A stretch of 64,000 bases of DNA from Escherichia coli (GTDB lineage: Bacteria > Pseudomonadota > Gammaproteobacteria > Enterobacterales > Enterobacteriaceae): the NCBI RefSeq assembly GCF_044324875.1, contig NZ_CP172185.1; one strand, 5' to 3'. Shown in pieces: positions 6,920 to 34,003 of this stretch. The notes under the pieces are model-generated. The model searched no databases. It was not told the DNA's origin and was given only the letters and a program-made list of their open reading frames with translations. Both the position numbers and the translations under genes were made by a program. Positions within the stretch are counted from its first letter, which is position 1. Each line of letters opens with the position of its first letter.

Positions 6920-7804
6920 TTACTTTGCAATGAGATCGGGGTCAACTTCGCTTAACCTGCTTCGTTTTGACAGGTTGCCGGTCTTTCTTTTTTTCACTTT
7001 CGCCAGTTCTTCCGCAGAGTAATGCGACGCGACATCCAGCCGTCGAAGCCCCATTTTGATGTACTCGCTGTTAATCTCAATACCAATGAATTTTCGCCCG
7101 CTGGCGACGGCTACGGCACCGGTAGTAAAGCTACCAGAAAACGGGTCGAGAACGATATCGCCTGGGTTGGAAGAGGCGAGAATAATGCGTTTCAGTAAGG
7201 CTTCCGGTTTTTGCGTCGGGTGATTCTCATATTCATCCATCAAATAACGCACGCGCGGAAAATCCCAGACGTTACCCGGTACTTTTTGATGATTGTAAGG
7301 CTGTGGAGGATTTTTGCGATAATCGATCAACGCGCGCTGCGATCCGGTTTTGGCTTCTACCAGAATAGCATCACCGTTGAACGTGTAGTTCTTTGCGTCT
7401 TTCACCATCATCAGGATGGGTTCGTACATGGAGCCGTAGTGTTTTTTCGCCTGCACTCCAGAACTGTCATATGACCAGACGATGCGACTTTTGATGGTAA
7501 AAAGCTTGCGGCACTGGAGATCGATAAAGGGCATGTTTTCCGTGCTGTTCATGATGTACATGCTGCCCTGCTTTTTCAGAACGCGGTGGCACTCTTCAAT
7601 CACTTCAAACAGCCAGTCGATAAACAGATCTTCTTTCCAGGCTTCGATCAGACCATCAAAATTTTTACCGATGTTATACGGTGGGTCGGCAAAGATCAGA
7701 TCGACACTTTCGGCGGGGATCTTTTTAAGTTCGGTTAATGCATCACCCTGGATGATGGTCTTTGCTTCATTACCAAATCGGGTCGGTTCACATCCTGTTC
7801 TCAT
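6920..7804 (-). CDS. yhdJ: DNA adenine (N6) methyltransferase YhdJ
   Basis: ORF track 6920..7810 (296 aa); contains DPPY motif (FADPPYNIG) and C-terminal FAGSFTTG-like SAM motif; start set at third codon (MRTGCEP...) to give 294 aa; alternative start 7810. Confidence 0.9.
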   Translation of the reverse strand: MRTGCEPTRFGNEAKTIIQGDALTELKKIPAESVDLIFADPPYNIGKNFDGLIEAWKEDLFIDWLFEVIEECHRVLKKQGSMYIMNSTENMPFIDLQCRKLFTIKSRIVWSYDSSGVQAKKHYGSMYEPILMMVKDAKNYTFNGDAILVEAKTGSQRALIDYRKNPPQPYNHQKVPGNVWDFPRVRYLMDEYENHPTQKPEALLKRIILASSNPGDIVLDPFSGSFTTGAVAVASGRKFIGIEINSEYIKMGLRRLDVASHYSAEELAKVKKRKTGNLSKRSRLSEVDPDLIAK

Positions 7805-7828
7805 GGTCACTCCCTTTGTGACACCTAT

Positions 7829-7865
7829 AAAAAAGGCGCTTCCCCATGCCGAGTAGCGCCTTTTT
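7829..7865 (-). terminator. Intrinsic terminator after fis
   Basis: Hairpin ggcgct-(14 nt)-agcgcc at 7835-7860 flanked by A-run (7829-7834) and T-run (7861-7865); bidirectional in form. Confidence 0.7.
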
Positions 7866-7889
7866 AATCAAGCATTTAGCTAACCTGAA

Positions 7890-8186
7890 TTAGTTCATGC
7901 CGTATTTTTTCAATTTTTTACGCAGCGTACCACGGTTGATGCCCATCATCAGCGCAGCACGGGTCTGGTTACCACGGGTGTATTGCATCACCATGTCCAA
8001 CAGGGGCTGTTCTACTTCAGCCAGTACCAGCTCATAGAGGTCATTCACATCCTGACCGTTCAGTTGAGCAAAATAGTTCTTCAGTGCCTGTTTAACCGAG
8101 TCACGCAGGGGTTTTTGGGTTACCTGATCCTGAGAGTTAACGGTAGAAACGGTCAGTACGTCAGAATTTACGCGTTGTTCGAACAT
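7890..8186 (-). CDS. fis: Nucleoid-associated protein Fis
   Basis: ORF track 7890..8186 (98 aa) [98 protein letters not shown], matching Fis as I recall it. Confidence 0.98.
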
Positions 8187-8211
8187 AGTTCTGTCAGCTC
8201 TTTATTTCTGT

Positions 8212-9177
8212 TTACGCAAAATTTTCGAAGTATGCCTCCAACGCCTCCAGCTGTTCGCTGGCATCCTCAATGGCGTTGAATGTGCGCCGAAACTGGTCAT
8301 TTGGAGCGTGTTCCTGGAGATACCAGGAAACGTGTTTACGTGCAATTCGGTACCCTTTTGCCGGACCATAAAAGTCATGCAGTTCCCGAACGTGCGCGCA
8401 AAGCAAGCGCTTAACCTCTGCCAAAGGCAGCGGGGGCAGCAACTCCCCAGTGTCCAGATAATGCTGGATTTCCCGAAAGATCCAGGGTCTTCCCTGAGCT
8501 GCGCGGCCTATCATCAGGGCATCCGCCCCTGTATAGTCGAGCACAGCTCTGGCTTTAAGCGGGTCAGTAATGTCGCCATTCGCGATAACCGGAATGGAAA
8601 CTTTCTGCTTAACTGCCCGAATACTGTCGTACTCAGCTTCTCCATTGAACAAACAGGCGCGTGTACGGCCATGAATGGTCAGAGCCTGAATGCCACAGTC
8701 TTCAGCCAGTTGGGCAATCTCTTCGCAGTTACGGTGTTCCGGTGCCCAGCCGGTGCGAATCTTCAGGGTAACAGGAACGTCCACTGCATTGACGACCTCG
8801 GTAAGGATCGATTTAACGACATCCGGGTACTGCAAGAGGGCTGAACCTGCGAGCTTGCGATTCACTTTTTTAGCCGGGCAACCCATATTGATATCAATAA
8901 TCTGGGCACCGCTTTCCACGTTAATACGTGCTGCATCTGCCATTTCTTTCGGATCGCTACCAGCAATTTGCACGGTGCGAATACCGGGTTCATCAATGTG
9001 CACCATCCGTAAACGAGATTTGTCGCTTTCCCAAACCTGTGGGTTAGAAGACATCATCTCGGATACTGTCAATCCGGCTCCCATCTCGTAGCACAACGTC
9101 CGAAAAGGTCTGTCTGTAATGCCAGCCATGGGCGCTGCGATCAGGCGATTTCTGAGCTGATATTGTCCGATGCGCAT
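8212..9177 (-). CDS. dusB: tRNA-dihydrouridine synthase B
   Basis: ORF track 8212..9177 (321 aa) [26 protein letters not shown]...; co-operonic upstream of fis. Confidence 0.95.
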
Positions 9178-9420
9178 GAGTTAAGAAATGACCATACTGT
9201 GACTGCAAGGCGGCGTATATTACGCATTTTTTGCACGAGATGAAAGGCCAAACTTTGACCAATCCTCTGAGATGGATCAAAGAATTGCATTTAAAATGAG
9301 CGTGGTGCAATAATTACTCATAAAAATCATCATATTAGAAAATGGTGACTAAAATTTACACTCAAAGAAATTTGAGTAAGTTCTCAATTTTTCTTTATGA
9401 ATGAAAATTTTGGCACGCAA
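9178..9420 (-). promoter_or_regulatory. dusB-fis promoter region (approximate)
   Basis: AT-rich 328-bp gap upstream of dusB with repeated A/T tracts; position corresponds to the growth-phase regulated fis promoter. Individual sites not mapped. Confidence 0.45.
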
Positions 9421-21078: not shown

Positions 21079-21672
21079 ATGACTTCTCTGTATTTAGCTT
21101 CCGGTTCTCCGCGTCGTCAGGAGTTACTTGCGCAACTTGGCGTAACCTTTGAACGTATTGTTACGGGCATTGAGGAGCAGCGTCAGCCGCAGGAGAGCGC
21201 GCAGCAGTATGTTGTGCGTCTGGCGCGCGAGAAAGCACAGGCGGGTGTCGCGCAAACGGCGCAGGATCTCCCGGTGTTGGGTGCGGATACTATCGTTATC
21301 CTGAATGGAGAAGTGCTGGAGAAACCGCGCGGCGCAGAGCATGCGGCGCAGATGTTGCGCAAATTATCGGGGCAGACCCATCAGGTGATGACGGCAGTGG
21401 CGTTGGCCGACAGTCAGCACATTCTCGATTGCCTGGTGGTCACCGATGTGACTTTCAGAACGTTAACAGACGAAGACATCGCGGGCTATGTCGCCAGCGG
21501 TGAACCGTTAGATAAAGCAGGTGCATACGGTATTCAGGGGCTGGGTGGCTGTTTTGTCAGGAAGATAAATGGCAGCTATCACGCCGTAGTCGGCTTACCG
21601 CTGGTTGAAACGTATGAATTATTAAGTAATTTTAACGCACTGCGTGAGAAAAGGGATAAACATGACGGCTGA
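21079..21672 (+). CDS. yhdE: Maf-family nucleoside triphosphate pyrophosphatase (YhdE)
   Basis: ORF track 21019..21672; start set at [22 protein letters not shown] (197 aa); Maf signature SGSPRR. Confidence 0.92.
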
Positions 21673-23131
21673 ATTGTTGGTAAACGTAACGCCTTCGGAA
21701 ACGCGAGTGGCGTATATTGATGGCGGTATTCTGCAGGAAATTCATATTGAACGTGAGGCGCGACGCGGAATAGTAGGCAATATCTACAAGGGTCGTGTAA
21801 GTCGTGTACTTCCGGGTATGCAGGCGGCTTTTGTAGATATTGGGCTGGATAAAGCCGCGTTTCTTCATGCATCCGATATCATGCCGCACACTGAATGTGT
21901 GGCGGGTGAAGAACAAAAGCAATTCACGGTACGCGACATCTCGGAACTGGTCCGTCAGGGGCAAGATCTGATGGTGCAGGTGGTGAAAGATCCGCTTGGC
22001 ACTAAAGGTGCGCGCCTGACTACCGATATCACGCTGCCTTCTCGCTATCTGGTGTTTATGCCAGGGGCTTCTCACGTTGGGGTTTCCCAACGTATTGAAA
22101 GCGAATCAGAACGTGAACGCCTGAAAAAAGTGGTCGCAGAGTATTGCGACGAGCAGGGCGGGTTTATCATCCGTACCGCAGCGGAAGGGGTTGGCGAGGC
22201 TGAACTGGCCTCCGATGCCGCTTATCTGAAACGCGTCTGGACCAAAGTTATGGAGCGTAAAAAGCGCCCGCAGACTCGTTATCAGCTGTACGGCGAACTG
22301 GCGCTGGCGCAGCGTGTTCTGCGTGATTTCGCCGACGCCGAACTCGACCGCATTCGCGTTGACTCACGCCTGACTTACGAAGCATTGCTGGAGTTTACCT
22401 CGGAGTACATTCCCGAGATGACCAGCAAGCTGGAGCATTACACCGGACGCCAGCCGATTTTCGATCTCTTTGATGTCGAAAACGAAATTCAGCGAGCGCT
22501 GGAACGCAAAGTAGAACTGAAATCCGGTGGCTATCTGATTATCGACCAGACCGAAGCGATGACCACCGTAGACATCAATACCGGGGCGTTTGTCGGTCAT
22601 CGCAATCTGGACGACACCATTTTCAATACCAATATTGAAGCGACGCAGGCTATCGCTCGCCAGTTACGGTTGCGTAATCTGGGCGGGATTATCATTATTG
22701 ATTTCATCGATATGAATAATGAAGATCACCGCCGCCGCGTGCTGCACTCGCTGGAGCAGGCGTTGAGCAAAGACCGGGTGAAAACCAGCGTTAATGGTTT
22801 TTCGGCGCTGGGGCTGGTGGAGATGACGCGTAAACGCACCCGCGAAAGCATTGAGCACGTACTATGTAACGAATGCCCAACCTGCCACGGTCGCGGAACG
22901 GTGAAAACCGTGGAAACGGTATGCTATGAAATCATGCGCGAGATTGTTCGTGTACACCATGCTTATGATTCCGACCGTTTCCTGGTCTATGCTTCTCCGG
23001 CAGTAGCTGAAGCCTTGAAAGGTGAAGAGTCACACTCGCTGGCGGAAGTGGAAATTTTCGTTGGCAAACAGGTTAAAGTACAAATTGAACCGCTCTATAA
23101 CCAGGAGCAGTTTGACGTCGTAATGATGTAA
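21662..23131 (+). CDS. rng: Ribonuclease G
   Basis: ORF track 21644..23131; start set at [31 protein letters not shown] (489 aa); S1 domain plus RNase E/G catalytic core; overlaps yhdE end. Confidence 0.95.
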
Positions 23132-30988: not shown

Positions 30989-32956
30989 ATGGGTATTTTC
31001 TCCATTGCTAACCAACATATTCGCTTTGCGGTAAAACTGGCGACCGCCATTGTACTGGCGCTGTTTGTTGGCTTTCACTTCCAGCTGGAAACGCCACGCT
31101 GGGCAGTACTGACAGCGGCGATTGTTGCCGCCGGTCCGGCCTTTGCTGCGGGAGGTGAACCGTATTCTGGCGCTATTCGCTATCGTGGCTTTTTGCGCAT
31201 CATCGGCACATTTATTGGCTGTATTGCCGGACTGGTGATCATTATTGCGATGATCCGTGCACCATTATTGATGATTCTGGTGTGCTGTATCTGGGCCGGT
31301 TTTTGTACCTGGATATCCTCGCTGGTACGAATAGAAAACTCGTATGCGTGGGGGCTGGCCGGTTATACCGCGCTGATCATTGTGATCACCATTCAGCCGG
31401 AACCATTGCTTACGCCGCAGTTTGCCGTCGAACGTTGTAGCGAGATCGTTATCGGTATTGTGTGTGCCATTATGGCGGATTTGCTCTTTTCTCCGCGATC
31501 GATCAAACAAGAAGTGGATCGAGAGCTGGAAAGTTTGCTGGTCGCGCAATATCAATTAATGCAACTCTGTATCAAGCATGGCGATGGTGAAGTTGTCGAT
31601 AAAGCCTGGGGCGATCTGGTGCGACGCACCACGGCGTTACAAGGTATGCGCAGCAACCTGAATATGGAATCTTCCCGCTGGGCGCGGGCCAATCGACGTT
31701 TAAAAGCGATTAATACGCTATCGCTGACGCTGATTACACAATCCTGCGAAACTTATCTTATTCAGAATACGCGCCCGGAATTGATCACTGATACTTTCCG
31801 CGAATTTTTTGACACGCCGGTAGAAACCGCGCAGGACGTCCACAAGCAGCTCAAACGCCTGCGGAGAGTTATCGCCTGGACTGGGGAACGGGAAACGCCT
31901 GTCACCATTTATAGCTGGGTCGCGGCGGCAACGCGTTATCAGCTTCTCAAGCGCGGCGTTATCAGTAACACAAAAATCAACGCCACCGAAGAAGAGATCC
32001 TGCAAGGCGAACCGGAAGTCAAAGTAGAGTCAGCCGAACGTCATCATGCGATGGTTAACTTCTGGCGAACCACACTTTCCTGCATTCTGGGGACGCTTTT
32101 CTGGCTGTGGACGGGCTGGACTTCCGGCAGTGGTGCAATGGTGATGATTGCGGTAGTGACGTCACTGGCAATGCGTTTGCCGAATCCACGCATGGTGGCG
32201 ATCGACTTTATCTACGGGACGCTGGCAGCGCTGCCGTTAGGGCTGCTCTACTTTTTGGTGATTATCCCTAATACTCAACAGAGCATGTTGCTGCTGTGTA
32301 TTAGCCTGGCAGTGCTGGGATTCTTCCTCGGTATAGAAGTACAGAAACGGCGACTGGGCTCGATGGGGGCGCTGGCCAGCACCATAAATATTATCGTGCT
32401 GGATAACCCGATGACTTTCCATTTCAGTCAGTTTCTCGACAGCGCATTAGGGCAAATCGTCGGCTGTGTGCTCGCGTTCACCGTTATTTTGCTGGTGCGG
32501 GATAAATCGCGCGACAGGACTGGACGTGTACTGCTTAATCAGTTCGTTTCTGCTGCTGTTTCCGCGATGACTACCAATGTGGCACGTCGTAAAGAGAACC
32601 ACCTCCCGGCACTTTATCAGCAGCTGTTTTTGCTGATGAATAAGTTCCCAGGGGATTTGCCGAAATTTCGCCTGGCGCTGACGATGATTATCGCGCACCA
32701 GCGCCTGCGTGATGCGCCGATCCCGGTTAACGAGGATTTATCGGCGTTTCACCGACAAATGCGCCGCACAGCAGACCATGTGATATCTGCTCGTAGCGAT
32801 GATAAACGTCGTCGGTACTTTGGCCAGTTGCTGGAAGAACTTGAAATCTATCAGGAAAAGCTACGCATCTGGCAAGCGCCACCGCAGGTGACGGAACCGG
32901 TTCATCGGCTGGCGGGGATGCTCCATAAGTATCAACATGCGTTGACCGATAGTTAA
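30989..32956 (+). CDS. aaeB: p-hydroxybenzoic acid efflux pump subunit AaeB
   Basis: ORF track 30989..32956 (655 aa); polytopic membrane protein; 5 bp after aaeA. Confidence 0.93.
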
Positions 32957-32959
32957 GTC

Positions 32960-32988
32960 AAAACCGACGCCAAAAGCGTCGGTTTTTT
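32960..32988 (+). terminator. Intrinsic terminator after aaeB
   Basis: ccgacgc-caaaa-gcgtcgg hairpin followed by tttttt (32983-32988). Confidence 0.8.
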
Positions 32989-33047
32989 CATGGCTATACT
33001 TAGCGATGAACGGCAGAACTCGCCGCGAAACGTGACGGTGGCAACAG

Positions 33048-33320
33048 ATGAATATTTATACCTTTGATTTTGATGAGATTGAGAGTCAGGAGGATTTTTA
33101 TCGCGACTTCAGCCAAGCCTTTGGTCTGGCGAAAGATAAGGTACGCGATCTCGACTCACTATGGGATGTGTTAATGAACGATGTCCTGCCGCTACCACTT
33201 GAGATTGAATTTGTTCATCTGGGAGAGAAAACGCGTCGCCGTTTTGGCGCGTTAATATTGCTGTTTGATGAGGCAGAGGAAGAGCTGGAAGGGCATTTGC
33301 GTTTTAATGTTCGTCATTAG
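33048..33320 (+). CDS. yhcO: Barstar-like ribonuclease-inhibitor family protein YhcO
   Basis: ORF track 33048..33320 (90 aa) [46 protein letters not shown]...; acidic, barstar-like. Confidence 0.85.
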
Positions 33321-33322
33321 CG

Positions 33323-33348
33323 CAAAAAAAAGCCCCCGAACCGGGGGC
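33323..33348 (-). terminator. Intrinsic terminator after yhcN (shared with yhcO)
   Basis: gcccccg-aac-cgggggc hairpin (33332-33348) preceded on plus strand by aaaaaaaa (T-run on minus strand). Confidence 0.75.
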
Positions 33349-33375: not shown

Positions 33376-33639
33376 TTATTTGTACAGTTCAGCCGTAGCG
33401 TGCCAGGTGTCACCGCTACGAGCTTCAGTAATCTGGTAGGCCGTTGCGCCTTTCTCTTCCGCTTTTTTGTTCAGCATTTCACGCATATCCATTGGCGAAG
33501 ACGCCACACCACTTACGGATACGGTCCCGATTGCTTCACGATTTTGTGCTTGTGCAGCATCAATGGAGTCGGCAGCGAATGCACCGAAAGAGAGAACAGA
33601 AAGTACGCTTAATGCAGCAACAGTGGTTTTGATTTTCAT
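33376..33639 (-). CDS. yhcN: Stress-induced periplasmic DUF1471 protein YhcN
   Basis: ORF track 33376..33690; start set at MKIKTTVAALSVLSVLSFGAFA (signal peptide, 87 aa). Confidence 0.85.
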   Translation of the reverse strand: MKIKTTVAALSVLSVLSFGAFAADSIDAAQAQNREAIGTVSVSGVASSPMDMREMLNKKAEEKGATAYQITEARSGDTWHATAELYK

Positions 33640-34003
33640 GATTTTTACCTCGACATAATCTTTTAGCTGGGCCTTTGTTTCGTGACCCATATCACAAAAT
33701 CAAGTATACACTAATTATTGAACTAATTAATACCACGCTAACTGTTTCAGTTGATACTAAGTGTTAAAAATGTGAGTTTTAATAACAAAAAAGAATTAAA
33801 AACACGGTTATTTATTATTAATTCTATTGTTTTCAATTAGATAATGAATTTTGCATAATGTGCTTTTTTTACCGTATGTATTCATTGTGTGAATGACATG
33901 TCGCAGTAAAACGCACTATTCGTTAAATTAATCGGAGAGGAAAGCAGGGGGTTGAGAGGGATAAGCAACATTTTCCCCGCCGCCAGAAGCGACGGGGCAG
34001 AGA

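Follow-up and report, generated by a model that had tools for sequence, protein, structure and literature searches.

The barstar-family gene yhcO of Escherichia coli as the probable surviving half of a ribonuclease–inhibitor operon

Here, we describe the locus of yhcO, a small barstar-family gene of Escherichia coli, in a stretch of 64,000 nucleotides (nt) from contig NZ_CP172185.1 (assembly GCF_044324875.1), in the following called the window, and we reconstruct how this gene has apparently come to stand without the ribonuclease (RNase) gene that accompanies its relatives. According to the list of open reading frames (ORFs), yhcO covers positions 33048-33320 of the plus strand, with an ATG start and 90 codons plus stop. 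The encoded protein is acidic (pI 4.5; 21 aspartate and glutamate versus 10 lysine and arginine residues), and the RefSeq entry at these positions reads “yhcO: barstar family protein”. A first-pass annotation of this DNA had reported a 90-residue acidic protein here, and the ORF matches its positions exactly, its charge being in agreement as well. The coding sequence is found with at least 90% identity in 5425 of 5426 complete E. coli genomes, and an 801-nt query spanning the yhcO locus likewise matches 5425/5426 of them.

The upstream neighbour is aaeB (30989-32956, plus strand; Pfam FUSC with 544 bits, and RefSeq), the last gene of the aaeXAB efflux operon. An intrinsic terminator with a 10-bp GC-rich stem and a U run (32961-32988, plus strand) separates yhcO from the aae operon; it folds with -18.4 kcal/mol (z -5.6), and none of 200 shuffled sequences folds as well. 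The 91-nt spacer between aaeB and yhcO (32957-33047, plus strand) is the site of an aldehyde dehydrogenase (ALDH) gene and/or an RNase gene in relatives. In E. coli it contains, on the plus strand, the motif CTATACT (32994-33000), which resembles a -10 element of the sigma-S type, and GGTGG (33037-33041), a putative Shine-Dalgarno sequence 6 nt before the ATG. Within the gene two segments matter for what follows, namely codons 26-47 (33123-33188, plus strand), delimited by alignments as the loop and helix 2 that contact the RNase in barstar, and codons 72-82 (33261-33293, plus strand), the acidic helix 4 as seen in the BLASTP alignment, the structural model and 88 sequence clusters. Downstream, terminator scan and folding reveal a GC-rich hairpin, GCCCCCGAACCGGGGGC (33332-33348), between the convergent genes yhcO and yhcN, which is likely a bidirectional terminator, given the A and T runs on its two sides. 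The gene yhcN (33376-33639, minus strand; NCBIfam equivalog NF033776 with 149 bits, and RefSeq) codes for a periplasmic protein of peroxide and acid stress. Its frame is open to an upstream ATG (33376-33690, minus strand), which would give 104 residues; NCBIfam and RefSeq favour the 87-residue form starting from 33639. Pfam, NCBIfam and RefSeq together agree with the earlier naming of the neighbours as aaeB (efflux) and yhcN (stress protein). Past these two genes the RefSeq annotation continues with argR, mdh and degS.

By profile, fold and signature YhcO is a real barstar-type protein. The Pfam profile PF01337 matches residues 1-81 of 90 with 38.6 bits (gathering cut-off 23.4, E 1.1e-9), and BLASTP aligns 81 residues with barstar of Bacillus amyloliquefaciens at 27% identity (E 3e-6); a search of NCBIfam gave no YhcO model. 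Two crystal structures, both titled “ribonuclease inhibitor Barstar”, represent YhcO itself (PDB 2CX6, 89 of 90 residues identical) and its Salmonella orthologue (PDB 5F4C). The AlphaFold (AF2) model of YhcO has a pLDDT (predicted local distance difference test) of 96.4 and was compared by means of Foldseek, with a template modelling score (TM) of 0.99 to 2CX6 and of 0.78-0.81 to more than 20 barstar chains at a root-mean-square deviation (rmsd) of about 2.0 Å; beyond barstar chains the next fold class follows with E above 0.02. YhcO thus has the alpha/beta fold of barstar, a three-stranded parallel sheet packed against four helices. With B. amyloliquefaciens barstar (PF01337; 1BRS chain D) it also shares its length (90 versus 89-90 residues), its acidic character, its cytoplasmic location and the lack of a signal peptide, the two structures superposing with TM 0.80 and rmsd 2.0 Å. 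The first-pass annotation had called the protein barstar-like and had proposed modelling against barstar as a check; profile score, BLASTP match and this structural similarity bear the assignment out.

The residues that dominate binding in barstar are found again in YhcO. D36, W39 and D40 align with barstar D35, W38 and D39, and E75 and E79 correspond to barstar E76 and E80, as taken from the BLASTP alignment. In barstar these five residues provide the main polar contacts to R59, R83, R87 and H102 of barnase (PMC4207830 Table 1; PMC8837141). The two aspartates form the DxxxD motif on helix 2, which Zhang et al. 2012 (PMC3482391) named as signature of the barstar family, and they occupy the sole invariant columns in an alignment of 47 sequences including barstar. 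Among the 88 Enterobacteriaceae clusters D36, E75 and E79 are invariant (88/88 each), and position 40 is occupied by D in 66 and by E in 21 clusters. The remaining residues in the contact list of barstar (PMC4207830 Table 1), and F31, G32, N34 and A37, which never vary in RNase-linked enterobacterial homologues, are not kept; E. coli has D30, K31, V32, D34, S37, M43 and N44/D45. Barstar Y29, Y30, G31, N33, T42 and G43 are represented by D, K, V, D, M and N/D. Further differences from barstar are the low overall identity of only 20-27% and the lack of an adjacent RNase gene in E. coli. YhcO is not a type II antitoxin: in the paired loci described below the RNase gene precedes the inhibitor gene, and Pfam assigns the protein one barstar domain but none for DNA binding. 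Searches with PADLOC and PHROGs gave no match for YhcO or for the RNase of its relatives.

These relatives were found in a search of 1.84 billion representative proteins, which yielded full-length homologues at 30-57% identity. In the first two contigs inspected a PF00545 “Ribonuclease” gene lies directly upstream of the YhcO homologue. A scan with one genome per species, by marker mapping followed by ORF inspection, comprised 80 loci, and in about 70 of them (from other Enterobacterales and some Bacteroidota) an intact RNase ORF ends between -4 and +32 nt from the start of the YhcO homologue, i.e. in the RNase-then-inhibitor order known from barnase–barstar pairs. The RNases of these relatives match PF00545 with 55-61 bits, have an N-terminal hydrophobic signal peptide and conserve the equivalents of K27, R59, E73, R83, R87 and H102, the catalytic and barstar-contact residues of barnase. 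Those of enterobacteria are stand-alone exported proteins of 129-172 residues without a delivery domain.

The pair occupies the same chromosomal position (tldD/aaeB) in Yersiniaceae, Hafniaceae, Morganellaceae and Budviciaceae. The arrangement tldD-aaeR-aaeXAB-(ALDH)-RNase-yhcO occurs in Yersinia, Serratia, Rahnella, Ewingella, Rouxiella, Edaphovirga, Chimaeribacter and most of those Hafnia loci that still carry the flank, and the arrangement rng-yhdP-tldD-RNase-yhcO in Xenorhabdus, Photorhabdus, Proteus, Providencia, Arsenophonus, Budvicia, Leminorella and Limnobaculum. The Xenorhabdus order yhdP, CN-hydrolase gene, tldD, RNase, barstar equals the E. coli order minus the aae operon. In Erwiniaceae and several Bacteroidota the RNase–inhibitor pair stands in other contexts. 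In Regiella (L029) the RNase is intact by tblastn. The RNase-linked proteins (YPO3690 of Yersinia pestis and those of Serratia, Hafnia, Xenorhabdus and Proteus) are positional orthologues of YhcO after tldD/aaeB with 35-57% identity and 68% similarity at the DNA level, and the C-terminal half is nearly the same, with LPVEIEFIH...RRRFGA(I/L)(I/V)LLFEEAEEELxGxLRFN as common pattern. They differ from the E. coli protein in being closely coupled translationally to an intact exported RNase of the barnase family and in keeping an invariant FGxNLDALWD, which is altered in E. coli, where the gene stands alone with its own spacer.

In all ten loci of the E. coli clade with checked context the RNase gene alone is missing. 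They comprise E. coli, Salmonella (L088), Citrobacter koseri (L094), Leclercia (L095), a metagenome-assembled genome (MAG) of Enterobacter (L008), Klebsiella indica (L010) and the loci L089, L091, L092 and L093. The cleanest comparison is offered by Yersinia aleksiciae (L017), with aaeB, an ALDH gene at 6940-8412, the RNase gene at 8508-8984 and yhcO at 8989-9255, and the Enterobacter MAG, with aaeB, an ALDH gene at 7428-8954 and yhcO at 9001. Serratia shows the order aaeB-RNase-yhcO, and Enterobacter, Citrobacter and Leclercia show aaeB-ALDH-yhcO with a gap of 30-46 nt. The ALDH gene (PF00171, about 485-508 residues) is thus located between aaeB and RNase or yhcO in Yersinia, the Hafnia group, the Enterobacter MAG, C. 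koseri and Leclercia (apart from the two loci just given, also L089:1506-2960, L094:1523-2971 and L095:1501-2955), and it is absent from the aaeB–yhcO site of E. coli, Salmonella and Klebsiella indica, which have lost it in addition to the RNase gene. These comparisons indicate that the cognate RNase gene was deleted cleanly in the E. coli clade and the inhibitor gene was kept.

The RefSeq annotation of the whole 64 kb contains no barnase-type RNase gene; apart from rng (21644-23131), which codes for RNase G, a housekeeping enzyme of an unrelated family, no gene for a ribonuclease lies in the window. In tblastn searches of the window with barnase, binase, RNase Sa and four enterobacterial barnase homologues only short chance matches were obtained, so the earlier statement that no RNase toxin is encoded in the window stands. 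The spacers aaeB–yhcO or ALDH–yhcO of E. coli, Salmonella, K. indica, the Enterobacter MAG, L089 and L092 contain no credible RNase remnant in tblastn with the four enterobacterial RNases, matches being discounted for internal stops, wrong strand or tiny search space. A 748-nt Yersinia query covering RNase and yhcO matched 5423 E. coli genomes solely in its yhcO part (query 530-742, 68% identity), and its RNase part had no match in this DNA search of 5426 E. coli genomes. Protein searches with the RNase found none in phages, and among plasmids only Bacillus and Clostridium records plus two chromosome-sized Proteus records, with no barnase-family gene on plasmids of Escherichia, Salmonella or Klebsiella. 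None of the 120 best protein relatives of the RNase bears the name Escherichia, Salmonella, Klebsiella or Citrobacter. A PF00545 gene adjacent to the inhibitor gene and co-oriented with it is therefore lacking in E. coli and present in the orthologous loci of other families.

YhcO itself occurs in the plasmid collection only in “plasmid” records that are chromosome-sized or chromosome-derived. The PLSDB entries NZ_OL790811.1, NZ_OL790812.1, NZ_OL790696.1, NZ_CP134663.1, NZ_CP141089.1 and CP125156.1 (4-5 Mb) have the appearance of chromosomes, with chromosomal genes such as yhcO or the Proteus RNase pair on them. Two plasmid-sized records with a copy of yhcO, NZ_MK433207.1 (Klebsiella pneumoniae, 180 kb; 71% identity) and NZ_MG591698.1 (E. 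coli, 354 kb; 100% identity), may represent chromosomal segments taken up by large plasmids.

Decay of the RNase gene beside an intact inhibitor gene was observed in three more independent cases. In Hafnia psychrotolerans (L041:8921-8962) the RNase is reduced to a remnant of 14 residues, in Edwardsiella ictaluri (L058:8846-8989) only the C-terminal 48 residues are left and WxEAD has become WRGAD with replacement of the catalytic Glu, and in the Arsenophonus endosymbiont of Aphis (L034:8628-8991) the gene is frameshifted. In these recent losses the inhibitor keeps the ancestral FGxNLDALWD.

The standing of yhcO as an “orphan immunity gene”, proposed in the first-pass annotation, can now be judged in its two parts. 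The gene is an orphan by loss of its RNase gene; “immunity” is loose wording, given an ancestral partner without delivery domain. Because this partner was a small stand-alone RNase exported via Sec, the ancestral role would have been self-protection of the producer and not immunity against an injected toxin. With Imm-Barstar proteins of polymorphic toxin systems (PMC3482391) YhcO has in common the Pfam family and the DxxxD motif, and the concept of an inhibitor without toxin (“orphan immunity”) is applicable to both. Imm-Barstar genes differ in lying directly downstream of toxin cassettes of the Rhs, contact-dependent inhibition (CDI), type VI (T6SS) or type VII (T7SS) secretion type, whereas yhcO is surrounded by housekeeping genes, and the RNase ancestrally paired with it lacks a trafficking domain. 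An assignment of yhcO as immunity gene of a polymorphic toxin was rejected, as its neighbours are aaeB, yhcN, argR and mdh and the partner RNases are stand-alone exported proteins.

The orphan gene is still under purifying selection. Its ORF is intact with 90 codons for amino acids across genera with saturated synonymous sites. Between genera of the orphan clade the proportion of nonsynonymous differences (pN) is 0.08-0.33 and that of synonymous differences (pS) 0.56-0.92, the latter being saturated, which corresponds to an uncorrected pN/pS of 0.15-0.42; for Salmonella versus C. koseri the values are 0.083 and 0.557. Where correction was feasible omega amounts to about 0.09-0.2 in orphans and to a similar 0.07-0.25 in RNase-linked clades. 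The overall acceleration is only modest, as identity to the outgroup is 47% for YhcO compared with 61-64%, and 83% compared with 86-88% for the neighbour TldD; with TldD as yardstick no strong global shift in rate is claimed.

The change is concentrated in the segment that touches the RNase in barstar. At comparable overall divergence, mean pairwise identity in residues 1-25 is 66% in both orphans and RNase-linked proteins, and in residues 48-88 it is 79% and 76%, respectively, but in the contact zone of residues 26-47 it falls to 54% in orphans as against 80% in RNase-linked proteins. In this zone pN is 0.298 versus 0.133 and pN/pS 0.39 versus 0.20, hence still below 1, with the other zones being equal. 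Constraint was thus relaxed specifically on the RNase-contact segment, with no sign of positive selection, and selection was maintained on the remainder of the protein. In 72 RNase-linked proteins Y18, F31, G32, N34, L35, D36, A37, L38, D40, P50 and A76 are invariant. Compared with these homologues E. coli YhcO shows F31K, G32V, N34D, A37S and T43M, and the orphan clade has one residue inserted at position 44. Throughout the 88 clusters the same positions are affected, with F31 replaced by K/R in 73, G32 by V in 86 and N34 by D in 78 of them, and A37 by S/T. The opposite holds for helix 4, which is more conserved in orphans than in paired proteins: nine of its 11 positions (codons 72-82) never vary in the 88 clusters, and the other two, F73 and D74, do so in no more than two clusters apiece.

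Regarding expression, a promoter scan upstream of yhcO found no sigma-70 consensus promoter. A C at position -13 followed by TATACT is the form typical of sigma-S promoters. Of 35 loci from Enterobacteriaceae, Yersiniaceae and Hafniaceae, 24 carry the motif CTATACT 10-115 nt downstream of the aaeB stop, be the next gene ALDH, RNase or yhcO (the window, L008, L010-L013, L015, L017-L019, L021, L023-L025, L033, L040, L041, L048, L049, L059 and L088-L091). Since it is common to these loci irrespective of the following gene, CTATACT is probably the promoter of yhcO and probably inherited, so that transcription of yhcO would still start from the promoter that served the ancestral (ALDH)-RNase-inhibitor unit. 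A sigma-S-type promoter would fit the published data, according to which yhcO is RpoS-dependent in O157:H7 (PMC2907692), is induced by acid shift together with yhcN (PMC2270276) and is activated by LldR (PMC10272880). The latter paper, from 2023, still lists the function as unknown, in line with the earlier remark that the gene is known in K-12 and functionally unexplained.

Taken together, we consider it rather probable that yhcO is the surviving inhibitor half of an ancestral operon of an exported barnase-family RNase and a cytoplasmic barstar, and that its product likely still acts as an acidic plug. In the ancestor YhcO would have blocked the basic cleft at the active site of its own RNase while that enzyme was still in the cytoplasm, prior to export, using helix 2 (D36, W39, D40) and helix 4 (E75, E79) in the way barstar binds to barnase. 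After deletion of the RNase gene yhcO would have been expressed from the putative sigma-S-type promoter downstream of aaeB, in stationary phase and upon acid induction. Today YhcO would most likely still close a basic RNA-binding cleft stoichiometrically, as an acidic “plug”. As residues invariant in the paired homologues have been replaced, it probably no longer has the ancestral RNase as its target at full affinity.

Several points weigh against this scenario. Bacillus barnase expressed from a plasmid kills E. coli if no barstar is provided along with it (PMC8625414), from which it follows that YhcO at its native level does not neutralise this enzyme and, differing from barstar in this respect, evidently does not protect E. 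coli from cloned barnase. The side chain of barstar N33 bonds to H102 of barnase (PMC4207830), and in E. coli the equivalent of N33 is Asp and that of G31 is Val; additionally, 21 of the 88 clusters have Glu in place of D40. That YhcO tightly inhibits a barnase-family (N1/T1) RNase in a 1:1 complex is a prediction, with indirect evidence against it in the case of Bacillus barnase, and the literature search gave no report of inhibitory activity of YhcO. The evidence for the putative promoter is the motif itself. Finally, the single loss in the ancestor of the clade is read from ten loci, and several independent deletions may have taken place.

What YhcO binds today can be interpreted differently. 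It is conceivable, and we propose this tentatively, that YhcO was re-tuned after deletion of the RNase gene in the ancestor of Enterobacteriaceae and recruited to a different endogenous partner in stationary-phase or acid-stressed cells. Under sigma-S control, helix 4 and a remodelled helix-2 loop would then bind another basic protein, with scaffold and acidic helix 4 kept; a different RNase is a candidate for this partner, as is an RNA-binding protein. The nearly invariant helix 4, even more conserved than in paired proteins, points in this direction, as does purifying selection outside the contact zone that is as strong as in paired orthologues. The replacements in the contact zone are themselves conserved (V32 in 86/88 and K/R31 in 73/88 clusters), although they could stem from one early episode of drift; speaking against a new target, YhcO has retained the DxxxD and Glu residues that typify RNase binding. 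Co-regulation with stress genes via RpoS, acid shift and LldR would suit such a recruitment, and so would the new right-hand neighbour, as yhcN flanks yhcO solely in the RNase-less clade among the contexts compared. Against it, no candidate partner is identified, and our literature search found neither a phenotype nor an interaction of yhcO.

A second alternative, which we regard as rather unlikely, retains RNases as targets and assumes stand-by (orphan) immunity, i.e. YhcO is kept to neutralise foreign barnase-type RNases that reach the cytoplasm of E. coli. Candidates would be polymorphic toxins with barnase domains or the RNases of Proteus, Hafnia, Serratia and Yersinia, which share habitats with E. 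coli. The acidic residues that dominate the affinity of barstar (D36, D40, E75 and E79) are kept. Such residues are said, after work of Schreiber, Buckle and Fersht in 1994, to cost barstar stability, and keeping them would argue for a function. The RNase is encoded by gut neighbours, and Tox-Barnase domains occur on T6SS, T7SS, Rhs and other delivery systems together with Imm-Barstar partners (Zhang et al. 2012, PMC3482391). However, the stand-alone exported RNases of 129-172 residues have no delivery domain and thus no known route into the cytoplasm of another cell, and the searches of Escherichia, Salmonella and Klebsiella plasmids, of phages and of 5426 E. coli genomes at the DNA level detected no barnase-family gene. 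Variability of the contact segment could reflect the tracking of diverse foreign enzymes, but its pN/pS of 0.39 speaks for relaxed constraint and not for positive selection. Moreover, Bacillus barnase kills E. coli despite the presence of yhcO (PMC8625414), and yhcO is dependent on sigma-S and not constitutive (PMC2907692).

That yhcO might be a functionless leftover which has simply not yet decayed is highly improbable: the loss of the cognate RNase, the lack of a known phenotype, the existence of a scrambled Salmonella allele and the recurrence of RNase loss with a kept barstar in host-restricted lineages with decay under way would agree with it, but the intact 90-residue ORF under purifying selection (pN 0.08-0.33 versus pS 0.56-0.92), the regulated transcription and the presence in 5425 of 5426 E. 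coli genomes disfavour it. The allele in question (L090:3001-3273, Salmonella enterica GCA_024555905.1) is a rare disrupted one, in which residues 49-77 are scrambled by two compensating frameshifts and the last 13 residues are in frame.

Neither the gene nor its assignment to the barstar family nor its orphan status is new. In the literature searched no paper contains both “yhcO” and “barstar”, and the E. coli papers that name yhcO give expression data only. Added here are the syntenic history and the segment-specific relaxation, by which an open question becomes directly testable. The gene yhcO is a small core gene of E. coli with solved structure and without function, for which natural cognate enzymes can now be named, i.e. 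the RNases of Yersinia, Serratia, Hafnia and Proteus, and the relaxation of the contact segment predicts a lowered affinity. The surviving-inhibitor reading also makes yhcO a natural example of the expected asymmetry in toxin/inhibitor decay, in which the nuclease is lost first and the inhibitor persists; such nuclease-first loss is seen four times, in Enterobacteriaceae, Hafnia psychrotolerans, Edwardsiella ictaluri and the Arsenophonus endosymbiont. If the re-tuned interpretation were true, yhcO would be a documented case of an inhibitor that outlived its enzyme and gained a new target. The importance is modest, as the understanding of the gene family is unchanged.

Three loci with barstar homologues show peculiarities of their own. 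A short contig of a Hydrogenophaga intermedia assembly (L009; NZ_JAMBNO010000114.1, 422 nt) contains an enterobacterial aaeB 3' end and yhcO (70% identical to that of E. coli) and is probably a contamination. In the metagenomic locus L007:629-1396 (P0213) the product has 255 residues with the barstar domain at 173-251, and since the N-terminal part resembles the end of an AAA-type ATPase, it may be a fusion in the gene call. In Chryseobacterium sp. (L086) an intact RNase gene (7936-8397) and the barstar gene (9001-9309) are about 600 nt apart with an ORF between them, whereas elsewhere the two genes are tightly coupled.

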